From NCBI GenBank assembly GCA_918234285.1, contig CAKJXZ020000069.1, positions 1 to 28,675 on the forward strand: 28,675 bases of DNA, read 5' to 3'. Each line of letters opens with the position of its first letter. The first letter of the stretch is position 1. Made by a program: the position numbers and the translations under genes. The stretch is from Pseudomonadota bacterium (lineage in GTDB: Bacteria > Pseudomonadota > Alphaproteobacteria > RF32 > CAG-239). A model generated the notes under the pieces. It had not been told where the DNA came from and searched no databases. It saw nothing but the letters and a program-made list of their open reading frames with translations. Shown piece by piece: positions 338 through 21,994 of the stretch.

Positions 338-1084
338 ATGGTATCCGTGTCACTTAAACAACTTAAAGCAATATTAAACAATGATAAATATCTTCCGTAT
401 GAACAAGACGGCAAGACCTATAATCTTTATGATATGCCCGATGGGTTTGTAATAAAGGGTAATGTGGACTTAAGGGATAAAGGACTTACCGAATTACCTG
501 ATTTATCGAAAGTGATTGTTGAAGGATGTTTTGAGTGTCAGCGCAACAGACTTATTTCTTTGAAAGGCGCACCGCAAAAAGTAACAGGATTCTTTGATTG
601 CCATGAGAATAGTCTTGTATCATTGGAGGGAGCGCCTAAAGAAGTGGGAGAAAACTTCTACTGTTATCAGAATCATTTGGCAACAATGGAGGGAGCTCCA
701 CAAGTAATAGGCGGGGATTTTAATTGTGATTACAATAAGTTAAGTTCATTAAAAGGCGCACCGCAAAAAGTCGGGGGAGAGTTTAATTGTTCCCATAATC
801 CTTGGTTGGAGTCACTTTACGGAATATCGGCAATACCGGTCGGCGGAAAAATATATTGTAACGATGAATTGGGAGAAAAATACGGATTTTCTGATTCGCA
901 AAGTAAGGGTTTTGTTTATGAAGACTTAATTAAAAGTCAGGTTTATAAAAACGAGGTACTTATTGATGATATTATCCGTAAAAAACATACTAAAGAGCAT
1001 GAAGATGTAAAAACGCAAAATCATACTCAATTTAAGGCCGGATATGCGGCGTTTAAGAAAAAACAGGCCGAGGAACGGGAATAG
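338..1084 (+). CDS. 21-aa LRR family protein (5 repeats)
   Basis: Start moved from 188 to ATG 338 behind GGAGG (328-332). N-cap EQDGKTYNLYDMPDGFVIKG, repeats of type xxVGGxFxCxxNxLTSLxGAP, tail EERE. Confidence 0.9.
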   Translation: MVSVSLKQLKAILNNDKYLPYEQDGKTYNLYDMPDGFVIKGNVDLRDKGLTELPDLSKVIVEGCFECQRNRLISLKGAPQKVTGFFDCHENSLVSLEGAPKEVGENFYCYQNHLATMEGAPQVIGGDFNCDYNKLSSLKGAPQKVGGEFNCSHNPWLESLYGISAIPVGGKIYCNDELGEKYGFSDSQSKGFVYEDLIKSQVYKNEVLIDDIIRKKHTKEHEDVKTQNHTQFKAGYAAFKKKQAEERE

Positions 1085-1094
1085 GGGAATAGCC

Positions 1095-1979
1095 ATGGCA
1101 AGACGCTTGGAATATGTGCAGGACGGAAAAACCTATAACCTTTACGATTTACCCGACGGATTCGTAATCAATGGTAATCTGGATTTGCGCGACAGGGGTT
1201 TGACCGAATTGCCCGATTTATCCAAGGTTGTTGTTAAAGGGTTTTTTGATTGCAGCGAAAACAAATTGACTTCTTTAAAAGGGGCACCTAAGGAAGTGGA
1301 GGGACATTTTGATTGCCGGCGTAATCAACTGACTTCTCTGCAGGGAGCATCGCGAAAAGTCGGCGGAAATTTCAGGTGTAGCAATAATGAGCTTACAACG
1401 CTTGAAGGAGCGCCTATAGAAGTCGGTATGGGTTTTCATTGTCACCATAATAAATTGACTACGCTCAAAGGGGTGCCGCAAGCGCTCAGCGACGATTTTG
1501 ATTGCAGCAACAATAACCTTACTTCGCTACGGTGGCTGCCTAAGGAAATCGGCGGCTGGCTTATGTGCAGCGATAATAAGCTGACGGATTTGGAAGGTTC
1601 GCCGCAAACGTTGGGCGGAGGTATGGATTGCAGCTATAACGAGCTCACTTCTTTGGCCGGAGCGCCGCAAAAAACGGGCGGAAACTTTGTTTGCAGCCAT
1701 AATAAGTTGGAATCGCTTTTCGGTGTGCCGGAGATTCCGGATATGTGTGTTTTTCATTGTGATATTGAAGTGGGAGAGAAATACGGATTGGATGAAATTC
1801 CTTTCGGAGTTCAGCTTTGCCAACTTACCCGGAGTCCGCTTTATAAAAGTGAGCTGTCCGCCTATAAAATTCGGCAGAAAAAACACGAGGAACGGGAAAA
1901 GAAAGATGCCGAGACCAAGGCTAAGAATAAAGCCGGATTTGCCGCGTTTAAGAAACAAAAATACGAAGAACGGGAATAA
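1095..1979 (+). CDS. 21-aa LRR family protein (8 repeats)
   Basis: Start moved to ATG 1095 (MARRLEY) behind AGGGG. Same N-cap, repeats and tail. Confidence 0.9.
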   Translation: MARRLEYVQDGKTYNLYDLPDGFVINGNLDLRDRGLTELPDLSKVVVKGFFDCSENKLTSLKGAPKEVEGHFDCRRNQLTSLQGASRKVGGNFRCSNNELTTLEGAPIEVGMGFHCHHNKLTTLKGVPQALSDDFDCSNNNLTSLRWLPKEIGGWLMCSDNKLTDLEGSPQTLGGGMDCSYNELTSLAGAPQKTGGNFVCSHNKLESLFGVPEIPDMCVFHCDIEVGEKYGLDEIPFGVQLCQLTRSPLYKSELSAYKIRQKKHEEREKKDAETKAKNKAGFAAFKKQKYEERE

Positions 1980-1990
1980 GGAGCAGAGAT

Positions 1991-2761
1991 ATGGCGCAAT
2001 TAATCGAAAACTTTAAGTTTGAACAAGACGGGAAAACTTACAGCCTTTATAACTTGCCTGATGGGTTTGTGATTGAAGGCGATGTGGATTTGGAAGGTAA
2101 AGGCCTGACCGAACTGCCTGATTTATCGAAAGTTACGGTAACAGGATATTTTAATTGCTCCAATAATGCTCTTACCTCTTTGCGAGGGGCGCCGCGAGAA
2201 GTTGGCGGAGATTTTGGTTGCTTCTCCAATCAACTGACCTCTTTGCAGGGGGCACCGCAAAAAGTTGGTGGAGGTTTTTGGTGTGAAGATAATAAATTGA
2301 CCACCTTAAAGGGAGCGCCGCAAAAAACCGGCGATAGTTTTGTGTGTAGTAACAATCAACTGACTACGCTGGAGGGGGCACCGAAAGAAGTGGGTGGAGG
2401 TTTCAGTTGCAAGGGTAATGAGTTGACAACGCTCAGGGGAGCGCCGCAGAAGATTACGAGGGATTTTAATTGCGCCGAAAATCCGGACTTATCTTCGTTG
2501 TTCGGAATATCCGAAATGTTGGCAGATAAAAAAATAGATTGCGATTACTGGGTGATGACAAAATACGGTTCTCCTGATCCGGTAAACGGATGTATCAGTT
2601 ATAGTGTTTTAACTGCCAGCGCAAAATATAAGAGCGAGTTAGCCGCATATAATATTAAGAAAAAACATGAGGAACGTATGCAAAAAGAGGCGGAGATGAA
2701 GGCAAAACATAAGTCGGGATTTGCTACGTTCAAAAAAATGAAGGCCGAGGAGCGGGAATAG
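1991..2761 (+). CDS. 21-aa LRR family protein (6 repeats)
   Basis: AAGGAG RBS. Same N-cap, repeats and EERE tail. Confidence 0.9.
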   Translation: MAQLIENFKFEQDGKTYSLYNLPDGFVIEGDVDLEGKGLTELPDLSKVTVTGYFNCSNNALTSLRGAPREVGGDFGCFSNQLTSLQGAPQKVGGGFWCEDNKLTTLKGAPQKTGDSFVCSNNQLTTLEGAPKEVGGGFSCKGNELTTLRGAPQKITRDFNCAENPDLSSLFGISEMLADKKIDCDYWVMTKYGSPDPVNGCISYSVLTASAKYKSELAAYNIKKKHEERMQKEAEMKAKHKSGFATFKKMKAEERE

Positions 2762-2792
2762 AGGCTTTTATTGCTGTTTATAAGGTGTCGAC

Positions 2793-2815
2793 AGCCGTCG
2801 GTACGGGCGGTTTTT
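2793..2815 (+). terminator. Putative intrinsic terminator ending LRR array 1
   Basis: AGCCGTC/GGCGGTT stem with G-U pairs, running into a T tract. Confidence 0.5.
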
Positions 2816-2931
2816 ATCAGTAAAAATTTTACCCGATTTAGGTGGATAAAAAGCAAAAAATACTTTTTATCCGCTAGCGGTTTTGCTATATTTAATCAGT
2901 TTTATTTATAAGTAAATTGAAGAGGTATGAA

Positions 2932-5751
2932 GTGACTGAAGAAATTCAAGAAACACAGGAAGTTAGTGTGGTTAAAACCGATAATATCGCCCCGACCATG
3001 ATTTCGGAAGAAATGCGCCGCAGCTATTTGGATTATGCCATGAGCGTAATCGTTTCGCGTGCGTTGCCGGATGCGCGTGACGGTATGAAACCGGTGCATC
3101 GCCGCATTATTTACGGAATGTATGAAAACGGCTATGATTCGAGCAAACCTTATCGTAAATCGGCGCGTATCGTCGGTGATGTTATGGGTAAATATCACCC
3201 GCACGGTGACAGTTCGATTTATGAAGCAATGGTGCGTATGGCACAGCCTTTCTCCATGCGGGTTACGCTGGTTGACGGCCAGGGTAACTTCGGCTCGATG
3301 GATGGCGACGGCGCCGCGGCCATGCGTTATACCGAAGCGCGTTTGGCTAAGGTTTCCGCTTGCCTGACCGATAACTTGGATGAAGATACCGTCGACTTTA
3401 TGCCGAACTATGATGAATCTTTACAAGAGCCGACCGTATTGCCGGCACGTTTTCCGAACTTATTGGTTAACGGCGGCAGCGGTATTGCCGTAGGTATGGC
3501 TACCAACATTCCGCCACATAATTTGGGCGAAGTAATCGACGCTTGTTGTGCCTATATAGATAATCCGGATATCAGTGTAGAAGAGCTGATTAATATTGTT
3601 CCGGGGCCGGATTTTCCTACCGGCGGTCTGATTTTGGGCTACGGCGGTGCCAAACAGGCATATTTGACCGGTCGCGGCTCGGTAATGATGCGCGCTAAAT
3701 GCTCGATTGAAGAAATCCGCAAAGATAAAGAAGCCATTATCGTGCACGAAGTACCGTATCAAATCAACAAGGCCAATTTGGTGGCGCATATCGCCGAACT
3801 GGTTAAGGATAAGCGCATTGAGGGAATTTCCGATATTCGTGATGAATCCGACCGTCAGGGCGTACGCATCGTGATTGAAATCAAGCGCGATTTTCAGGCC
3901 GATGTGATTTTGAACCAACTCTATAAATACACCGAACTGCAAACCAGTTTCGGTATGAATATGCTGGCGATTAACGGCGGCCGGCCGATGATGATGAATT
4001 TGCGCGACATTATTGCCACCTTTATCGAATTCCGCGAAGAAGTAATTCGTCGCCGCACCGTGTATCGCTTGAATAAGGCGCGTAACCGCGCTCACGTTTT
4101 GGTCGGTTTGGCGATTGCCGTGGAAAATCTCGACCCGGTAATCGAGCTGATTAAAAATGCTCCGACGCCGCAAGACGCGCGTGAACAGTTGGTCAGCCGC
4201 AAATGGCCGGCTGCCGCGATTGAAGATTGGGTTAAACTGATTGACGAGCCGGACAGAAAGGTGGTTGACGGTATTTATATGATGTCGGATGACCAGGCTC
4301 GCGCTATTTTGGATTTGAAACTGCAACGCTTGACCGGTTTGGAACGCGACAAAATTCACGAAGAACTGGTGGATTTGGGCGCGGCGATTAAGGAGTTCCT
4401 GTCTATTCTTTCGAGCCGGGAAAAGCTCTATGGAATTATGCGCGATGAACTGGTGGCGGTTAAAGACGAATACGCCACTCCGCGTATGACCGAAATTCAG
4501 GATATTGAATATAACCAAGATATTGAATCGCTGATTCAGCGTGAAGAAATGGTGGTTACCGTGACCGAAGAAGGTTATATCAAACGCGTACCGCTGAATG
4601 CCTATAAAGCACAAAAACGCGGAGGTAAGGGTAAGTCGGGTATGACTACCAAAGATGAGGATTTTGTTACCCGTCTGTTTGTGGCCAGCACGCACACGCC
4701 GGTACTGTTCTTCTCGAGCCGCGGTATTGTTTATAAGATGAAAGTTTATAAACTGCCGCTCGGTTCGCCGACCTCTAAGGGCAAGCCGTTTATTAACTTG
4801 TTGCCTCTGGAAAATGGCGAAAATATTACCGCCATTATGAAGTTGCCGGAAAATGAGGAGGAGTGCAAGGGCGTTTCAATTGCTTTTGCAACCGCCAGCG
4901 GTAACATTCGTCGCAACAGTTTGATGGACTTTGTCAATGTTCAATCCAACGGTAAGATTGCGATGAAGCTTGATGAAGGCGATAAGCTGATTAACGTGGC
5001 GATGTGTGACGAAAACAACGATATTATGTTGGCAACGCGTCAAGGTAAGTGCATTCGCTTCCCGGTAACCGATGTCCGCGTGTTTGTCGGCCGTAACTCC
5101 ACCGGCGTGCGCGGTATTAAGTTGGCAAAGGGCGATGAAGTTATCTCGATGACCATGCTCAAGCATATTAAGGCGCCGATTGAAGAACGCGATGAGTATT
5201 TGAAAGTCTCCGGTGCCATGAAACGCATTGATGCCGAAAGTGGCGAAACCAGCTGCATTACGGCTGATCAGACCGGCTTATTGAACCTGCTCAGCTTGGA
5301 GAAGTTTGAAGAAATGCAAAAGATGGAAGAATTCATCTTAACCGTGACGGTAACCGGCTACGGCAAGCGTTCTTCTTCGTATGAATATCGCGTGACCGGT
5401 CGTGGCGGTTCGGGTATTGCCAATATGGAAATGTCGCCGCGCAATAAGGAAGTTGTCAGCTCGTTCCCGATTACCGAAGATAAGGATATTATGATGGTAA
5501 CCGACGGCGGTAAGCTTATCAGAATGCCGGTTGATGACATTCGTATTGCCGGTCGTAAGACGCAGGGCGTGATTTTGTTCCGTACTGCCGAAAATGAGAA
5601 CGTTGTTTCGGTAACCAAACTTGATGCCGATGAAGGTACCGACGAGGAAATCGATGAGGAGAACGACAACGTGATTGATACCGAGGCCGAGAATGCGGAA
5701 ATCGCAGCCGAGGCAATCAGCGAGCCGCGTACCGACGAGGCCGACGCCTAA
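2932..5751 (+). CDS. gyrA: DNA gyrase subunit A
   Basis: [26 protein letters not shown], catalytic AAMRYTE and GyrA-box QKRGGKG, which distinguishes it from ParC. Start is probably GTG 2932 after GAGGT (ORF track gives TTG 2917). Confidence 0.97.
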
Positions 5752-5775
5752 AAACGGCTGAAATTAATTCATAAG

Positions 5776-5807
5776 GCGCCTTGCACCTCAAAAGTGCAGG
5801 GCGTTTT
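5776..5807 (+). terminator. Intrinsic terminator after gyrA
   Basis: 11-bp stem GCGCCTTGCAC/GTGCAGGGCGT followed by TTT. Confidence 0.75.
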
Positions 5808-5833
5808 GTGTATAGATGATATTAAGGGCAGAG

Positions 5834-5880
5834 CTTTTCCGGCGAACTGCCCTATAAATCAATACCTGTTAAGGATAATC
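5834..5880 (-). pseudogene. Decayed copy of the toxin-family DYPQFGTNFWGGSPE segment
   Basis: Minus strand reads gat tat cct taa ca- ggt att gat tta tag ggc agt tcg ccg gaa, i.e. DYP*-GIDL*GSSPE. Alignment needs a 1-nt gap; the W codon TGG appears as TAG. Confidence 0.5.
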
Positions 5881-5885
5881 CTTTG

Positions 5886-5913
5886 TTGACTTTTTCAATA
5901 TATATTTTATTAT
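5886..5913 (+). promoter_or_regulatory. Sigma70-like promoter of the Cys-rich gene
   Basis: TTGACT-16 nt-TATTAT, then GGAG RBS before ATG 5939. Confidence 0.55.
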
Positions 5914-5938
5914 AAATACAATTTTATGGAGTATAAAA

Positions 5939-6838
5939 ATGAAAAAGTTGGTTTTGATTTTAGGACTTTGTTTGAGTTTTGGCGCAAATGCTCGGGCGGA
6001 AGATAATAGTTTTAAGGATTGTGATTTCATTATATATAACAAATGTATTTCTTGCAACACACCTTATGCTTTTGAAGTGGGATATGATGTGAATTGCACG
6101 TCGGTATGTCCTAACCGAGATGTTTTGCATGAGGGTAGCGGTTATTACTCTCGGAAGTTCTGTTTTTTGAAACAATGCCCTGATGATAAACCATATCGCC
6201 ACAGCGATGGCTCATGTTACGAAGATGAAAATCGCGTTCCGAGATGGGATAACGCGTACAAAGGTTTTTATGATATGTTTTCTGATGATAATATTGAAAG
6301 ACAGATACATATTTTGGCGGGCGATAATAATCAATGTTCGCCGAGTGAGCCATTATTTTATGAAAATGAGTGTTTTTCTTGTAATGAAACCCAAAACATT
6401 CCAATTTCAGAAACTGAATGCCGTAAATGTTCAAATCGTCAATACATCTATTCTAAACAATGGAATCGTGGAGAGTGTGTTTTACCGTGTCCGCCCGATA
6501 AACCTTTGAAACGTTGGGATGGAAAATGTTTTTCGTGTGATGAAAAGAAGGTTGTTCCTCTTGAAACATGGTGTAATTTTGATGTTGATTGTGATGTATG
6601 CCCGAACAGAACCATCCTTTATGCAATAGGCGGTAACATTCCGAGTATTCTTAACTGTCCGCTCGATAAACCGCTAATGGACGCTCATGGAACTTGCTAT
6701 TCATGCGAAACCGAACAATACGTTGATGTCAGATGGAATAGTGATTCATGCAACAAAATCTGCCCCAATCGCTATTTAGACACCACCAATGACAGTTGTA
6801 TTCTAAATGGAATGAAATTTAAACCAAATGAAAAATAA
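5939..6838 (+). CDS. Secreted cysteine-rich repeat protein, candidate immunity protein for the convergent lysozyme-like cassette
   Basis: Signal peptide MKKLVLILGLCLSFGANARA. About four repeats of CPxDKPL..G.CxSC...CxxCPNR. AT-rich. The immunity role is inference. Confidence 0.75.
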   Translation: MKKLVLILGLCLSFGANARAEDNSFKDCDFIIYNKCISCNTPYAFEVGYDVNCTSVCPNRDVLHEGSGYYSRKFCFLKQCPDDKPYRHSDGSCYEDENRVPRWDNAYKGFYDMFSDDNIERQIHILAGDNNQCSPSEPLFYENECFSCNETQNIPISETECRKCSNRQYIYSKQWNRGECVLPCPPDKPLKRWDGKCFSCDEKKVVPLETWCNFDVDCDVCPNRTILYAIGGNIPSILNCPLDKPLMDAHGTCYSCETEQYVDVRWNSDSCNKICPNRYLDTTNDSCILNGMKFKPNEK

Positions 6839-6876
6839 ATGATTAACATAATAATATTCATAATAAGATTCCGAGT

Positions 6877-8046
6877 TTATCTATAAAATTTTCCTTTCAT
6901 ACACATATCAGAAACCCATTGGTTACGCCTCTTTATATCATCACGCCTTTTATCAAGGCGGTGTAGGTTGTCGCAATAATCCCTTTTATTCATTTTTTCG
7001 GCTGCTCTTTTAGCTAGCATCCAACTATCCTTCGGTTCCATATTTCCGGTAAAATGTACATCCATTGTTGCGGCTTGCATCTCCGGTGACATATATAACC
7101 AATTAGTAATGACTTTATTTAGAGTATTCCAACGAGACTCAATATCCTCATTATACAAATCGCTACAATATTCTTGCGGCAATCTTGCATTTGTTTCGGT
7201 TGCATATAATTCTGGCTTAAAATTCGTTGGTAAACTTTTTAACTTTTTTTCTGCTGACAACATTTGCGATTTACTTAGTGATTGTCCGCTCGTTACATCA
7301 ATCCAAGGATGTGTATTGAAGTCATTTTTCATATTATGACCTATACAACCTGTAATATCCCCATTGATATCAGGATAAGGAAATACCATTCCATTATCAT
7401 CAATGGTTCTTTCATATCCCTCTTGTAGAATATGAAAATTACGGAGTTGATTATATGCATCAGATTGAACAAATTGATCGTATGTAGTTTTTTCTACATT
7501 TGGATAACTTGAAACATTAGTATGTACCATATTTTGCCCGAGTGAAGTCGGGGCGATGTATTGAGGTAATAGCGATGCCAGATAACGATTTATCGGCTCC
7601 ATAATCGGTGAAGATGTCGTGTTTGGAGCGATGTTTGCGCTTTGGTTGGTCGGTTGTGAGGCAAAAGCAGATGGGGTTTGTATCTGATACCCCGTCGCCT
7701 TTGACGCACCATATATCGGCGATGATGTATATGCACTTTGCACTTCAAGCGATGTCGTATTCGGCGCGGTAATCGCACCGGCGACGTTTTCTATTGCTCT
7801 GCCCGTAGCACTGCCAGAAGTGTTGTTATTCTGAAAATAACTGCTCGGTTTGCCGACCAAACTTTCGGTGTTGGCTGTATAATCGGAATTTGCAGTGACT
7901 TGCCCGTTATTTGTGTTGTTATTAAGCCGATTTGTTACGTTTTCGATATTTTGCTTAATGTTTGAAGTGCCGAAGCCGTAGTTATTTTCAGGTGAGCCGC
8001 CCCAAAAGTTTGTGCCGAACTGCGGATAGTCTCCACCTTGCAACAA
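6877..8046 (-). CDS. Start-less (probably silent) toxin cassette with a C-terminal T4-type (GH24-like) lysozyme domain
   Basis: Begins with a copy of an internal segment of 8471-9781, followed by an S/T/N-rich linker. Motif EG...PYPDINGDITGCIGH resembles the E...Y-x-D-x-x-G-x-x-T-x-G-x-GH signature of phage lysozymes. TTG start has no SD. Confidence 0.7.
   Translation of the reverse strand: MLQGGDYPQFGTNFWGGSPENNYGFGTSNIKQNIENVTNRLNNNTNNGQVTANSDYTANTESLVGKPSSYFQNNNTSGSATGRAIENVAGAITAPNTTSLEVQSAYTSSPIYGASKATGYQIQTPSAFASQPTNQSANIAPNTTSSPIMEPINRYLASLLPQYIAPTSLGQNMVHTNVSSYPNVEKTTYDQFVQSDAYNQLRNFHILQEGYERTIDDNGMVFPYPDINGDITGCIGHNMKNDFNTHPWIDVTSGQSLSKSQMLSAEKKLKSLPTNFKPELYATETNARLPQEYCSDLYNEDIESRWNTLNKVITNWLYMSPEMQAATMDVHFTGNMEPKDSWMLAKRAAEKMNKRDYCDNLHRLDKRRDDIKRRNQWVSDMCMKGKFYR
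7822..8030. repeat. Direct repeat, copy B (partner 9350-9597)
   Basis: 7919-8030 matches 9486-9597 except for a few mismatches in one cluster. 7822-7921 matches about 9350-9450 more loosely. Confidence 0.95.
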
Positions 8047-8086
8047 AACTTAAAGTATATATTCTAAATATTTTTCAATTTATATA

Positions 8087-8114
8087 TTGACAATTACTTA
8101 AAATATGTTATATT
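8087..8114 (+). promoter_or_regulatory. Sigma70-like promoter for candidate ncRNA2
   Basis: TTGACA-16 nt-TATATT with extended TG. Palindrome TACCTTAAGGTA at 8120-8131, near the expected +1. Confidence 0.65.
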
Positions 8115-8119
8115 TAAAA

Positions 8120-8242
8120 TACCTTAAGGTACTTTCACTTGTAGGAACGAAATATTTGATCGCCTACCTTGTATCCTTGGTCGAGAACCAGCTCTGTCAA
8201 GGGATTGAAAGAGTAAGAGCCCTCGTTGAGGGCACTTTTCTA
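8120..8242 (+). ncRNA. Candidate structured small RNA (ncRNA2), convergent with the toxin stub
   Basis: Outer stem CTTTCA(8132-37)/TGAAAG(8206-11) encloses GTAGG/CCTAC and ATCC-TTGG/TCAA-GGAT hairpins. Terminator GCCCTC-GTT-GAGGGC-ACTTTTCT. No credible ORF. Confidence 0.6.
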
Positions 8243-8244
8243 TT

Positions 8245-8361
8245 TTACCGGTCAATATAGTACATTGTTGAAATAATATTTTCGTCATTCTTAGGAGAGG
8301 TTACTACTCTAAATGGTCCGTTTTTACTCCGCGCCAAATAAACGTTTTGACCTATTGACAT
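8245..8361 (-). pseudogene. 38-codon C-terminal stub of a displaced toxin domain (not in the ORF track)
   Basis: MSIGQNVYLARSKNGPFRVVTSPKNDENIISTMYYIDR*. Three short predicted beta-strands, like the end of the 8471-9781 protein. No SD, and its ATG overlaps the -35 box of the ncRNA1 promoter. Confidence 0.5.
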
Positions 8362-8383
8362 ACATTTCAATTTCAATTAGTAT
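8355..8383 (+). promoter_or_regulatory. Sigma70-like promoter for candidate ncRNA1
   Basis: TTGACA-17 nt-TAGTAT. Confidence 0.65.
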
Positions 8384-8389
8384 AACAAT

Positions 8390-8480
8390 GTCAGATGGCA
8401 GTAAATCGTCCAGCGCTGCGGAGCGGGTATATTTACCTTTATCGATGAGGGAGGTGGGCGTCCCTCCTGACTATTTATTT
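8390..8480 (+). ncRNA. Candidate pseudoknotted small RNA (ncRNA1), convergent with the full-length toxin gene
   Basis: Stems GTCAG/CTGAC (8390-94/8467-71), GTAAAT/ATTTAC, CGCT-GCGG-AGCG and GAGGGA/TCCCTC. Loop TGGGCG (8455-60) can pair with CGTCCA (8407-12). GC-rich island in AT-rich DNA. Confidence 0.6.
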
Positions 8481-9781
8481 CCAAATAATGTTCTATATAA
8501 ATCATCAAGTTTTATTTGATAATCGCTTTTTATCACATTTTGATTCGGTTTGGATGGATTTACACTAACAAATCCTATATCAAGTTTATTCCCCGATGAA
8601 TTTATAACAGCTTGATTTTGGTTGTATTTTGTGCGAAAAATCACCGAATTTGGACTATAAATAGCACGATCAATCGAATCTGCCAATTCTTCTGGTGTCA
8701 TTCCATCACTTATAATCCTTTTTTCATATAATTTTTTGACAACATTTGCAGGAATATACATACGATTATTCTTCATGGTAGGTTGATTTAGATTCTGCCA
8801 GTTATCATTTAAAGTATCTTTGAACTCATTCGATATATTTCTGTATCTTATATCTCTAAAATTATTGCCATTTGTTAGTTGGTTAATTAAATTTTTACGG
8901 CCATTTTTTGCAACATATCTATCCAATCCGGCACTTGCCAATGCACCGCCGGTTAGAGCACTTCTGCTATATCCGACTAACTGTCCGGCTGTCTGCGCCG
9001 CTTCACGCTCTTGCGGGGTTTTCAGTTGCAAATAATCGTTCATCTGTGTATCGTAACCGAGCTTATTGCCGAGGTAATCTAACCCACCGAAGGTCATACC
9101 GTTAACCGTCCGATTCATCCCGTATAAAGCATCCATACCGTACATTAAAATTTGATTTACCGCATTACGCTGCGCTTGCAAAATTTGCGCTTGTTTTTGT
9201 GCTTCTGCAGAATTATATCCGCCGGCATTTTGAATTTCGGATGAATTACCGGATTGAACCGGGTTGTTAATGCCGCTGGTGTTGCTACTCAAAGCGCTTG
9301 TAACGTTATTCTCCCAACTGCCGGTACTGTTATTCGCCACGCCGGCAGAGTTGTTATTCTGGAAATAACTGCTCGGTTTGCCGATTAAGCTTTCGGTGTT
9401 GACTGTATAGTTTGAATTTGCAAAAACTTGACCGTTATTTGTGTTGTTATTAAATCCGTTATTTGTGCCGCCACTAAAACCGCCATTATTAAGCCGATTT
9501 GTTACGTTTTCGATATTTTGCTTAATGTTTGAAGTGCCGAAGCCGTAGTTATTTTCCGGCGTTCCGCCCCAAAAGTTTGTGCCGAACTGCGGATAGTTTT
9601 CTTCGGCTATCCCTTGCTTGGCAAAACCTTCTGCCAATTGATTTTCTCTTGCCAACCGCGCACTTTGATATTCCAACTCATCACGCGTTGAAAATCCGCT
9701 GTGGTCAACACCATAGCTATCCACCCCGCCGCGACCGGATTGATAGCCCGCCAATGTTTTTATTTCGTCCCAAATATCCAT
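8471..9781 (-). CDS. Putative polymorphic toxin: conserved N-terminus, N/G/S-rich linker, variable C-terminal domain (possibly a BECR-fold RNase)
   Basis: Strong RBS AAGGAGG. Modular composition, with an AT-rich 3' end. No signal peptide. The fold guess rests on the helix-helix-multi-strand pattern KRIISDGMTPEELADSIDRAIYSP...IGFVSV...NVIKSDY only. Confidence 0.65.
   Translation of the reverse strand: MDIWDEIKTLAGYQSGRGGVDSYGVDHSGFSTRDELEYQSARLARENQLAEGFAKQGIAEENYPQFGTNFWGGTPENNYGFGTSNIKQNIENVTNRLNNGGFSGGTNNGFNNNTNNGQVFANSNYTVNTESLIGKPSSYFQNNNSAGVANNSTGSWENNVTSALSSNTSGINNPVQSGNSSEIQNAGGYNSAEAQKQAQILQAQRNAVNQILMYGMDALYGMNRTVNGMTFGGLDYLGNKLGYDTQMNDYLQLKTPQEREAAQTAGQLVGYSRSALTGGALASAGLDRYVAKNGRKNLINQLTNGNNFRDIRYRNISNEFKDTLNDNWQNLNQPTMKNNRMYIPANVVKKLYEKRIISDGMTPEELADSIDRAIYSPNSVIFRTKYNQNQAVINSSGNKLDIGFVSVNPSKPNQNVIKSDYQIKLDDLYRTLFGNK
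9350..9597. repeat. Direct repeat, copy A (partner 7822-8030)
   Basis: Encodes YPQFGTNFWGG...KPSSYFQNNN and carries a 39-nt insertion (GGFSGGTNNGFNN) relative to copy B. Confidence 0.95.
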
Positions 9782-10087
9782 ATTTGCCTCCTTTTATAAA
9801 AGTTTTCTATTTTCATTTTTATTACTCCTTTAATTTTATAATTAAATTCTTATATAATAATTTATTTATTATTCTATCGCGACATCAAAACAAACCGCAT
9901 AAGCCCGAAAGCTATTGCGGTTTATCGAAAGAAAACAAACATGATGTCAACAACAGAGACAGTATATGAATAACACAACTTTATATCTCTGTCAAGTTTA
10001 AAATAAGAAAAATATAAAATAAAATGGTGTATAAAATGAAAAATCTTATTTTAGAAAAATGAGTTTGCAATAAATTTTCGTCCGTTG

Positions 10088-10116
10088 TTGACTTTTTGCC
10101 GATTTGTTTTTACCAT
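10088..10116 (+). promoter_or_regulatory. Sigma70-like promoter of endA-tcdA-rnhB
   Basis: TTGACT-17 nt-TACCAT. Confidence 0.55.
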
Positions 10117-10150
10117 ACGGATAAATGTAATGATTAAAGAAAGTGCAAAG

Positions 10151-11017
10151 ATGAAAAAGTTTTTGTTAATAGCCGCAATCGTGGCAATTTTGCCGCTGAC
10201 GGCCAAAGCCATTTGGTTTTGGAATTATGACGAAGATGCCGAACAGCCTGAGGTAAAGGTTTGGGGTAATCGGCACAGCCAGTCTTTTTATGCCGTCAAA
10301 CGCGAAATGCTGAATAAAATTTATTATGACCATCGCGAAACGCTGTATTGCGGCGCCGATTTTACCAAACAAAAAGAGATTATTCGTCCGCGCGGTTTTG
10401 TGTTGCCGGATTTGCGCTCGGTGGAGTTTGATGTTTACGATATTACGCCGGAAGAACTGCAAAAGAAGGCCGAGCGAATGGAGTGGGAACACATTGTACC
10501 GGCGCAGAACTTCGGTAAGACTTTTCCGGAATGGTTTGCAGGTAAAGAGGCTTGCGTTTCCAAAAAGGGTAAAAAATTCAAAGGGCGCGCCTGTGCCGAG
10601 CAGGAAAGCGAAGAATTCCGCTATATGTATACCGATATGTATAATTTGTATCCGGCTATCGGTGCGGTTAATTATTTGCGCGCCAATTATAATTTTACGC
10701 AATTTACCAAGCCGATTAAGCCGACTTTCGGTTCTTGCGGCGGCATGGTAATTTATAAAAACAAGGTCGAGCCGCGCAATGCGGTCAAAGGCTTGATTGC
10801 CCGCACGTATCTTTATATGCAATATACTTATCCGCGTTATCGTATCAGTGAAAATATGGCCTCGCTTTTGAATGTGTGGAACAAGCAATTTCCGGTTACA
10901 CCGTGGGAATGTGAGCGCGCTTATCGCATTGAAAAAGTACAGGGTAACGCTAACGAGATTGTTAAGCCGCTGTGCCTACAGGCCGGAATGTACGGGGACA
11001 GGCCGAGCCGAAAATGA
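10151..11017 (+). CDS. endA: Secreted endonuclease I (EndA/Dns family)
   Basis: Signal peptide from MKKFLL (ATG 10151). TLYCG, RMEWEHIVPA, DMYNLYPAIGAVN, KGLIARTYLYM and WECER motifs. Confidence 0.9.
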   Translation: MKKFLLIAAIVAILPLTAKAIWFWNYDEDAEQPEVKVWGNRHSQSFYAVKREMLNKIYYDHRETLYCGADFTKQKEIIRPRGFVLPDLRSVEFDVYDITPEELQKKAERMEWEHIVPAQNFGKTFPEWFAGKEACVSKKGKKFKGRACAEQESEEFRYMYTDMYNLYPAIGAVNYLRANYNFTQFTKPIKPTFGSCGGMVIYKNKVEPRNAVKGLIARTYLYMQYTYPRYRISENMASLLNVWNKQFPVTPWECERAYRIEKVQGNANEIVKPLCLQAGMYGDRPSRK

Positions 11018-21418: not shown

Positions 21419-21994
21419 TTATGTTATCGGTGTACCGACATAATTATTAATTATGATGGTGGCAACAACGGCTAATATCCAGCATATTGCAAGATAAAGA
21501 AACGGATATTTTAAAAGGTAACTCCGCACTGTTAAAGCGGATTTTTGTTTACTTGGGGTAATCAGCAAAAATAAAAACGCAGCAATCTGAATACCAAAGG
21601 CCGCAAGATAAATCTCTTTAAGAAAACCACCTAACATTTGCGTATCTGCAAAGTGAAATGCCATATTACCGATGAATGCCAATGAAACAATCAAAATCCA
21701 CAAAGTTCCCGTACTGCCGAAATCACGACACCTCTTTTGTGTAATCAATAAATAAGCATAAAATAAAAATAACTGTACTATGTAAGTCAACAGAGGATTC
21801 TGAAAATACTCAAAAACAGAATAAATACTGCCGAGTATAACCATAATTACTAAAAACTGTATTCCGGTCAGGATTCCTTCAACCGAATAAATCGGAGTAA
21901 TTTTTTTTGAACCGAAAATCACTGCATAAAGAATTTCTCTTATCGGTTCAATGATTTCATGTGTGATGATATATTTGATTTGAGATATACTCAT
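21419..21994 (-). CDS. Membrane protein, DUF805-like
   Basis: About 5 TM segments, QKRCRDFGSTG resembling the DUF805 RRxHDxGxSG motif, AGGAG RBS, AT-rich. Confidence 0.65.
   Translation of the reverse strand: MSISQIKYIITHEIIEPIREILYAVIFGSKKITPIYSVEGILTGIQFLVIMVILGSIYSVFEYFQNPLLTYIVQLFLFYAYLLITQKRCRDFGSTGTLWILIVSLAFIGNMAFHFADTQMLGGFLKEIYLAAFGIQIAAFLFLLITPSKQKSALTVRSYLLKYPFLYLAICWILAVVATIIINNYVGTPIT

Follow-up and report, generated by a model that had tools for sequence, protein, structure and literature searches.

What kind of genetic element consists of one complete gene followed, on the same strand and between housekeeping genes, by a stub, a gene without a usable start and a decayed repeat? 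The question is raised by positions 5800-10084 of contig CAKJXZ020000069.1 (assembly GCA_918234285.1), which belongs to an alphaproteobacterium of the GTDB lineage RF32; CAG-239 and whose full length of 28,675 nucleotides (nt) we refer to as the window. A first-pass annotation had described the region as a polymorphic toxin array, that is, a full-length gene (gene A), a stub, a cassette (gene B) with a convergent partner (gene C) and a remnant, the modules being swapped by recombination. Here we report that the region is likely an array of polymorphic toxins and immunity genes on the chromosome, belonging to a family not described before, for which we favour bacteriocin-like delivery. The family is, as far as searches reach, confined to uncultured gut and rumen Alphaproteobacteria. 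Its toxins are built from an N-terminal domain of about 100 residues placed at residue 1 (N-domain), a disordered linker of Asn, Gly, Ser and Thr, and an exchangeable C-terminal domain. Two regularities stand out: every type of C-terminus is accompanied by a partner gene specific to it, whose protective role is putative, and behind the full-length genes lie cassettes in which the first ~60 residues are missing but the second half of the N-domain is kept.

The family was compiled from 284 confirmed stretches found in a scan of species-representative genomes, from which 78 loci (L numbers below) were kept. By their contig names these come from 50 assemblies, 20 of which contribute two to five loci each, and with up to 10 kb of flank per locus they total 1.02 Mb; genes in them are simple longest open reading frame (ORF) calls, and cluster borders depend on the BLAST thresholds chosen. 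A hidden Markov model (HMM) of the N-domain detected 119 copies in the 78 loci and the window. The 96 C-termini of at least 60 residues carried by this one N-domain fell into 24 clusters (CT), among which Pfam names at least six domain types. CT1, to which gene B belongs, is of the pesticin/T4-lysozyme type, CT2 is Tlde1/YkuD and CT4 is GH108 with a peptidoglycan-binding domain, while the biggest cluster, CT0 (20 members), is SAA-like. CT8 is SLT-like under the Pfam cut-off, the C-terminus of L053 is VgrG3-C-like (T6SS_VgrG3-like_C, E=2.2e-24), a PBECR2 nuclease match in L061 is sub-threshold, and the remaining clusters received no Pfam name. Judged from their sequences, the C-terminal domains appear to be mostly cell-wall enzymes, the others being SAA-like or unnamed. 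The homologs thus differ in C-terminus, in line with the exchangeable modules proposed at first pass. As to CT0 itself (e.g. L006 9989-10828, and P0017), the match is to Pfam SAA (serum amyloid A) with E values of 1e-12 to 1e-17 and the partners are small membrane proteins; a bacterial SAA-like domain seems unusual as a toxin module.

A clustered partner gene lies within 260 nt downstream of 68 of the 90 toxins that have a complete 3' end. Among 101 pairs of toxins sharing a partner family, 100 also share the C-terminal cluster, against a mean of 14.7 and a maximum of 34 in 1000 permutations, although this count is somewhat inflated by related genomes, not all pairs being independent, and to that extent weighs less in favour of our interpretation. 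Convergent partners account for 10 of 11 cases in CT1, 8 of 10 in CT4 and, for CT3b with its N33 partner, 2 of 2, whereas the partners of CT0, 2, 5, 6 and 7 lie on the same strand in 42 of 42 cases. Signal peptides are found on the partners of lysozyme- and GH108-type toxins; the partners of SAA-like, CT5 and CT6 toxins are membrane proteins, and N33, the partner of CT3b, has no signal peptide. Partner location fits the presumed target of each toxin type. The claim that immunity partners are convergent stands for gene C and for the CT1, CT4 and N33 partners; it does not extend to CT0, 2, 5, 6 and 7, with their same-strand genes. Of three partners claimed in the window, gene C is the only one that is a protein gene, the partner of the stub being an RNA unit.

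The N-domain is strongly conserved, with 21 invariant positions and a mean column identity of 69% in alignment A4. With gene A as query, 274 proteins were found at E<=1e-3, and the best 120 of these mostly match its first ~100-140 residues only, at 60-88% identity; the source names given among these 120 are 'MAG: Alphaproteobacteria bacterium' (MAG, metagenome-assembled genome). An N-domain profile run against 1.84 billion representative proteins returned 264 matches only. In each of the 150 proteins listed of the 264, the start of the domain falls no later than residue 52, and because the longest protein among the listed matches has 602 residues, it occurs without fusion to a larger carrier. 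Record titles assign nearly all of the 78 loci to MAGs of Alphaproteobacteria from gut or rumen; the two with other source labels are probably mis-binned contigs. In an AlphaFold model, residues 11-70 fold as a long helix and short strands (predicted local distance difference test score, pLDDT, 79-87). Searches with the N-domain of Pfam, PHROG, NCBIfam and PDB sequences, at limits of E<=0.1 to 1, gave no match, in agreement with the earlier reading that the N-terminus carries no RHS, PAAR or LXG motif; it has no signal peptide, and no characterised family matched it. Likewise, genes A, B and C and the small plus-strand ORFs yielded nothing beyond chance in Pfam, PHROGs, NCBIfam, PADLOC or PDB sequences, the gene A family profile matched nothing in the PDB below E=0.44, and N-domain scores in the ESM Atlas (<=0.79) were at chance level. 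The listings and the opening parts of abstracts in the literature searched held no description of this toxin family.

These data also bear on whether the proteins are toxins at all, since they might instead remodel the cell wall or be lysins of phage origin, anchored in either case by the N-terminal domain that they share. Many C-termini are indeed peptidoglycan hydrolases, and a phage collection holds one record with the N-domain. That record is an unverified 5-kb faecal 'Bacteriophage sp.' contig, whose listed ORFs, read by eye and not family-scanned, include no recognised phage gene; there is no PHROG match, and a plasmid collection contained no match to the N-domain. Anchored hydrolases or lysins are further opposed by the type-specific partner genes, by the arrays of truncated cassettes and by non-hydrolase C-termini (the SAA-like ones and possible RNase folds, the latter weak leads only). 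We regard a non-toxin function as very improbable, and we rejected an origin from phage or plasmid, given a single unverified contig without a recognised phage gene and no plasmid match.

Locus L079 (MT838567.1) encodes a second, different pair of related proteins (1722-2708 and 3541-4347) with a common N-terminus (MKNQS.YVWSYAAYGGEPQYIQTPYG...) and divergent C-termini, each followed by a convergent signal-peptide gene (2723-3169 and 4575-5039, both minus strand). They possibly represent another polymorphic toxin family of the same bacteria.

In the window, the array is flanked by gyrA (2917-5751) and an endonuclease I gene (10085-11017); the flanking genes are housekeeping genes, and tcdA, RNase HII, hydF and alanine racemase genes are also present. 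The minus-strand order is gene A, stub, gene B and a degraded arm at ~5800-5866, and the ORFs match the order given at first pass (full-length gene, stub, start-less cassette, decayed repeat). From the lead gene onward, the features are:

9782-10084, minus strand: leader and promoter region of gene A, recognised by upstream conservation with other lead toxin genes
8471-9781, minus strand: gene A, full-length lead toxin of 436 residues; an ORF with ATG and an AGGAGG Shine-Dalgarno sequence
9341-9597, minus strand: homology arm in gene A, comprising the second half of the N-domain and the start of the linker; direct repeat with 7813-8030
8355-8468, plus strand: promoter-like TTGACA-17-TAGTAT (8355-8383) and a hairpin with a T-rich tail (8449-8468), which enclose ~80 nt just 3' of the gene A stop
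8245-8376, minus strand: stub of 43 codons, the last ~35 codons of a CT3a-type C-terminus by protein alignment
6877-8046, minus strand: gene B, N-truncated cassette of 389 residues with its arm at 7813-8030; matches HMM positions 61-101 only
5939-6838, plus strand: gene C, partner of gene B, 299 residues, Cys-rich, with a Sec signal peptide; homologs lie beside B-type C-termini
5886-5913, plus strand: promoter of gene C (10/12), which with the signal-peptide codons (to ~6007) forms a shared segment
5800-5866, minus strand: decayed, internally deleted homology arm of a third cassette, by alignment with L014

The arm shared by genes A and B comprises 112 nt at 96% identity (7919-8030 and 9486-9597) and 113 nt at 87% (7813-7925 and 9341-9453); it spans 218 bp in B and 257 bp in A, which differ by a 39-nt indel, and is far beyond chance. 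This confirms the ~210 bp noted earlier as common to the two genes. In the family as a whole, the N-domain copies divide into 91 full-length and 28 partial ones, and we read the latter as four halves of frameshift-split genes, three copies cut by the end of the DNA and 21 internal N-truncated cassettes. Twelve of these 21 cassettes start at HMM positions 58-65, four at ~45 and five elsewhere, and 21 of the 28 partial copies are preceded on their own strand by a full-length one. The remnant downstream of gene B is weak when taken alone (a 23-nt ungapped match at 5835-5857, 74-78%). Its identity was settled by alignment with L014, where the two sequences are near-identical up to ~5866, after which L014 has a third cassette, of the Tlde1 type (TNFWGGSPENNYGFG...), and the window a degraded, internally deleted version of ~60 nt; the decayed repeat claimed at first pass is thus real.

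L014 also provides a strain comparison. Its tcdA-endonuclease I flank is 79.5% identical to that of the window over 2404 nt and its lead toxin is of the GH108 type with its own convergent partner, whereas the B-C cassette (window 5835-7913, L014 12016-14094) is 97.2% identical over 2079 nt. This excess of cassette over flank identity suggests recent transfer or conversion between genomes. The architecture expected of recombination between the A and B arms exists in nature, in the full-length protein P0027. Together with the truncated cassettes and the tracking of partner and type, this protein and the L014 comparison support the module swapping proposed at first pass.

A second segment may bound the cassettes on their far side. 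Positions 5886-6007 match the 5' ends of partner genes of the N2, N9 and N14 types (L004, L009, L012, L013, L017, L028 and L063) and have the appearance of a border that cassettes share, which could be another arm for recombination. Otherwise unrelated convergent partner families (N2, N9, N14 and N29) have a near-identical promoter and signal peptide (MKKFVLILGL...SANA type). In the mechanism that we propose, the N-domain arm and this promoter/signal-peptide segment would serve as the two homology arms, the latter on the far side when a cassette is imported. One crossover between the directly repeated arms of A and B would delete 1.5 kb and place gene B behind the start of gene A; the C-terminus of gene A would be lost, and its start and first ~60 codons would be joined to B to yield a full-length lysozyme toxin resembling P0027. 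The stub and the decayed arm would be scars of earlier exchanges.

The downstream pieces might instead be pseudogenes decaying after duplications and deletions, their arm kept by chance or owing to recent origin. Degradation is plain in both the stub and the 5800-5866 remnant, four of the 28 partial copies are frameshift-split genes, and no recombination product was seen directly. Gradual decay does not, however, account well for gene B, which keeps an open frame of 389 codons and 92% protein identity to its L014 copy, nor for the 97.2% DNA identity over the 2079 nt of the B-C cassette, in which gene C is intact with its promoter. The contrast of that value with the 79.5% of the flank, and the start of 12 of 21 internal cassettes from different genomes within the same eight HMM positions, speak in the same direction, and we consider the pseudogene explanation improbable.

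Comparison with its relatives shows gene B to be an otherwise normal toxin that is truncated at the N-terminus. Its reading frame begins with a TTG, one codon past an in-frame TAA, and lacks a Shine-Dalgarno sequence, so that it is effectively start-less; it begins at N-domain position 61, the first ~60 residues being missing. Full-length relatives with the whole N-domain were found by BLAST in P0027 (399 residues, 84%) and in L035 (73%). Its T4-lysozyme/pesticin-like domain occupies residues ~180-389 (6880-7509). A CT1 profile (alignment A3) matches T4 lysozyme with E=5e-5 and with the catalytic stretch aligned, Pfam finds Pesticin in the relatives P0097 and P0114, and the ten-residue blocks of residues 181-380 in an AlphaFold2 model have pLDDT values of 62-92, mostly 73-92. 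The best 50 Foldseek matches are all T4 lysozyme or fusion constructs (probability 0.92-1.0), with template modelling (TM) scores of 0.5-0.63 against free lysozyme. The lysozyme motif (Glu, eight residues, Asp, five residues, Thr) has its exact spacing in 12 of 16 aligned members. Gene B and three close relatives carry an eight-residue insertion between the catalytic Glu and Asp, and its activity is for that reason not certain.

Gene C, which has many Cys residues in repeated C-x2-C patterns and no family match in Pfam, PHROG, NCBIfam or PADLOC, is a putative periplasmic immunity protein. Its homologs adjoin B-type C-termini in L014 (97.7%), L035 (76%) and L077 (26%). A complex prediction for the lysozyme domain of gene B with mature gene C scored 0.00, in a run that had no controls and in which the fold of gene C itself was uncertain, and this score speaks neither for nor against the pairing. 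We infer that gene B is a silent spare cassette of the lysozyme type, kept with its periplasmic immunity protein C.

Gene A is presumably the lead toxin that is expressed. The ~270 nt preceding its start codon are 69-78% identical to those of the lead toxin genes in L001, L002, L008, L013, L014, L018 and L036, among which the endonuclease I flank is common to the window and L014 only. The protein consists of the N-domain (residues 1-100, 9482-9781), a disordered Asn/Gly linker (~100-190), a helical 'middle' (~190-290) and a C-terminal domain (290-436, 8474-8914). AlphaFold2 gives pLDDT values below 50 for residues 100-282; the 147-residue C-terminal domain scores mostly 74-94, with a lowest ten-residue block of 59. 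The helical, Gly-rich middle segment is common to all CT3 toxins and may carry the C-terminus across the inner membrane. A fold search with the C-terminal domain returned nothing significant, the best matches being RelE-like and CDI (contact-dependent inhibition) RNase toxins at E 0.1-1 (BrnT at E=0.1, YoeB, and CdiA-CT 7m5f and 6cp9). On these structural leads the domain is possibly an RNase of the RelE/BECR kind. It is also found elsewhere as short stand-alone ORFs, and proteins P0003, P0004, P0007, P0009, P0010, P0012 and P0013 end in the same tail. A related type, CT3b, occurs in L052 and L077 and is partnered by N33, a cytoplasmic protein; a homolog of N33 is absent from the window.

An 18-codon ORF with its own Shine-Dalgarno sequence (9760-9816, minus strand; read from sequence) overlaps the start codon of gene A in another frame.

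Only ~95 nt separate the gene A stop from the stub, and this interval holds the promoter-like site and hairpin listed above and no credible gene. Region 8355-8468 has no homologous DNA in the 78 loci, and a transcript of 8386-8482 folds no better than shuffled sequences (z -0.63). Two plus-strand ORFs, 8313-8519 and 8105-8260, were rejected as immunity proteins: they start inside or upstream of promoters, and their frame and length are not conserved in L008, L051, L013, L072 and L002, where conservation is at the nucleotide level in all frames. The protector of gene A may have been deleted, may lie elsewhere in the genome or may be a short 3' transcript.

The stub led to a different kind of partner. 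By protein alignment it corresponds to the last ~35 codons of the toxins in L002, L008, L051, L013 and L072. In all eight CT3a ends examined (full-length genes in L008, L051, L013, L072, L023 and L027, the orphan in L002 and the stub of the window), the 3' side consists of a two-strand terminator hairpin, one to four copies of a ~64-nt module and a convergent promoter. In the window these are:

8219-8233, both strands: terminator hairpin for either direction (GCCCTC-3 nt-GAGGGC), kept immediately behind CT3a stops
8122-8184, plus strand: structured RNA module, a hairpin of 5 bp, an AA bulge and 3 bp with a conserved loop; supported by covariation and model R1
8087-8114, plus strand: strong convergent promoter TTGACA-16 nt-TATATT with TG (11/12, the best site of the region), directed toward the terminator

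The terminator hairpin directly follows the CT3a stops of L008, L051, L013, L072 and L002, and in alignments of the same five loci the -35, the -10 and the spacing of the promoter are kept. When 16 modules were aligned without a structure reference (alignment A6), an interrupted 8-bp hairpin was paired in 112 of 112 cells (100%), against 24-51% in slid controls. Five of the eight pairs changed on both sides, in 16 cells; none of 500 shuffles reached this cell count or the covariation score and two of 500 reached the count of such pairs, figures to be read with the caveat that the 16 modules come from eight related loci and the changes are not independent events. On the toxin strand, seven G-U cells would fail to pair; they fit the convergent strand only, which suggests that the RNA is read from the convergent promoter. 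Covariance model R1 found the 16 modules and nothing else credible in the 1.02 Mb, with 65.9 bits for the module of the window. The module holds no conserved ORF, and Rfam returned nothing for the window region and sub-threshold chance matches only for L002.

The three best sigma-70-like sites of 5700-10150 are all on the plus strand, at 8087 (11/12, with TG), 5886 (10/12) and 8355 (10/12), the very sites named as promoters at first pass; those at 8087 and 5886 are kept in other loci. Promoter-like sites as a class are not enriched across this interval (17 vs 16.9 expected).

L023 and L027 leave no space for a partner protein: behind the toxin come the RNA and, next to it, a CoA-transferase gene. 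For the CT3a domain, Atlas features gave Ntox35 (0.89), bacterial RNase A (0.83) and EndoU (0.81), and the Atlas predicted structure lies near PBECR and MuF-C nuclease folds (TM 0.5-0.59); all are leads only. Antisense control of the toxin mRNA was rejected, matches being limited to 7-10 nt in inconsistent places. It is conceivable, if on balance rather unlikely, that the protector of CT3a toxins is a small structured RNA of one to four modules that neutralises an RNase-like toxin in the cytoplasm. We know of no earlier RNA immunity factor for an inter-bacterial toxin, and among the literature matches listed there was no such link; this RNA would be the first if it is a true protector.

How such proteins would leave the producer and enter a target cell is the next question. 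Our tentative preference, held with somewhat less than even confidence, is for a colicin- or pesticin-like route in which the toxin is released from the producer and the N-domain and linker act as receptor and import module on the target. We favour this route because the proteins are small, have no signal peptide and no linked apparatus and carry a long disordered linker, and because the enzymes are mostly periplasm-acting, with the extra segment present only on putative cytoplasm-acting types. The Trp/Asn/Gly-rich stretch may resemble the TolB-binding stretch of E-group colicins, and a TolB is encoded in L029.

Neighbouring genes were searched for delivery systems. Neither type VI secretion system (T6SS) nor phage-tail genes occur among 98 recurrent and 50 largest non-recurrent neighbour proteins, so the co-occurring secretion or phage-like systems sought at first pass did not materialise in this set. 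Secretion-related genes near the loci are a TrbI-Bflower protein (L019), TpsB (L015, a family in two loci) and autotransporters (L006 and L025); with none recurrent beyond two loci, a linked secretion system was rejected. The L019 protein (1063-5277, 1405 residues, seen once) has beta-flower and TrbI/VirB10-like domains and lies ~4.7 kb upstream of the toxin locus. The only recurrent non-partner neighbour is G1, a basic helical protein of ~152 residues found in 18 loci and absent from the window (e.g. L007 1856-2329, L023 6231-6686 and L039 9136-9882). In nearly all of these loci it precedes the lead toxin, in the same orientation, at a distance of 89-119 nt (three copies are further off, one on the opposite strand); some copies have an N-terminal helix-turn-helix-like extension. 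G1 has no Pfam or PADLOC match and is probably a regulator.

The same toxin array could also be served by a contact-dependent apparatus encoded elsewhere in the genome, most likely a T6SS, for which the N-domain would be the loading marker. Orphan cargo effectors of T6SSs carry N-terminal markers of this sort (MIX, FIX and RIX). The C-terminal domains are of kinds typically found in T6SS effectors (Tlde1_dom, T6SS_VgrG3-like_C in L053, lysozymes and possible nucleases), the partners are periplasmic or membrane proteins, loci are scattered in housekeeping contexts with several per genome, as is often the case for marker-domain effectors, and the strong conservation of the N-domain suits a conserved machine part. 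Set against this, no Hcp, VgrG, PAAR, Tss or adaptor gene was found in the 148 neighbour proteins of ~1 Mb of flanks, none of the 264 family members is fused to a longer carrier, Pfam finds no known marker domain in residues 1-100, and long disordered linkers are unusual in such cargo. Loading onto a T6SS is a possibility that we take seriously, at less than an even chance.

Several observations weigh against the toxin array with bacteriocin-like delivery that we prefer. Neither toxicity nor secretion nor recombination was directly observed in the data, and nothing found speaks positively for the bacteriocin route: a lysis gene was not seen, and the toxins have no conserved small lipoprotein gene as a neighbour. 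In colicins the order differs from that seen here, where a structured N-domain precedes a disordered stretch. Tlde1 and VgrG3-C domains are known from T6SS effectors and are not known from bacteriocins, and they speak for a T6SS encoded elsewhere, with which our apparatus scan is compatible, as it covered locus flanks and the T6SS could lie elsewhere in the MAG genomes. As for gene A, its reading as an RNase rests on non-significant fold matches (E 0.1-1), and it has no recognisable adjoining immunity gene, which is awkward for an active lead toxin.

Comparison with known systems helps to place the family. A conserved N-terminal part, many alternative C-terminal toxins each adjoined by a cognate partner, and start-less downstream cassettes with a homology arm for recombination are shared with the orphan-cassette arrays of MafB, CDI (CdiA-CT) and Rhs. 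These arrays are polymorphic toxin systems (PMC3482391). The present N-domain is unrelated to theirs, having no signal peptide and no match to DUF1020, two-partner secretion, Rhs, PAAR or LXG sequences; in gene A and 30 + 30 relatives, no MafB, CdiA, Rhs or LXG N-domain was found by Pfam or NCBIfam outside the C-terminal domains. The proteins described here also differ in having at most 602 residues and many convergent partners, in that a second shared segment (partner promoter and signal peptide) bounds the cassettes, and in the pairing of one C-terminal type with an RNA unit and not a protein gene.

Bacteriocins of the pesticin-Pim and colicin M-Cmi type (PMC3390615, PMC5821083) are similarly small signal-less proteins with an N-terminal import part and a C-terminal cell-wall enzyme, which in pesticin is a T4-lysozyme-like domain as in gene B; they have a periplasmic partner, often on the opposite strand, and no dedicated secretion machine nearby. 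Their N-terminal part has no sequence relation to the N-domain, and the locus here is chromosomal and multi-copy, with cassette arrays. T6SS marker effectors share with the family a short conserved N-terminal marker, polymorphic C-terminal toxins, immunity genes and scattered loci; the N-domain differs in matching no known marker and in having no T6SS component in ~1 Mb of flanks.

For CT3a alone, the closest likeness is to the type III toxin-antitoxin systems ToxIN, CptIN and TenpIN (PMC3401426, PMC8860590), which likewise combine a toxin, here one that is weakly RNase-like, with a short non-coding RNA, here of one to four structured modules, and a terminator. The RNA here differs in being convergent and downstream and not upstream and co-transcribed, its modules have ~64 nt in a period of ~85 nt with spacers, and the CT3a toxin is part of a polymorphic, presumably exported protein; neither PADLOC nor Pfam matched it to ToxN or AbiQ. 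The system is set apart from known arrays by its new N-domain, its two-segment cassette borders and, in one type, an apparent replacement of the immunity gene by an RNA.

Outside the array, the window encodes at 21422-21994 (minus strand) a 191-residue multi-pass membrane protein with 28-33% identity (E down to 2e-18) to the N6 partners of CT5 toxins, a family with weak DUF805 likeness. It has no adjoining toxin and lies in a low-GC stretch (GC 0.32-0.38, ~21-22.5 kb), and it is possibly an orphan immunity gene.

The family would add a new trafficking domain to the repertoire of polymorphic toxins, in Alphaproteobacteria of gut and rumen that are abundant yet uncultured and for which no means of competition has been described. 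As a compact (<=~600 residues) and modular family with clear cassette borders, it is tractable for the problem of how signal-less toxins exit and enter diderm cells, and it offers a collection of putative killing domains aimed at the cell wall, together with the candidate inhibitors that match them. If the reading of the CT3a module is true, it would amount to an 'immunity RNA' for an exported inter-bacterial toxin, joining the logic of type III toxin-antitoxin systems to polymorphic toxin cassettes.

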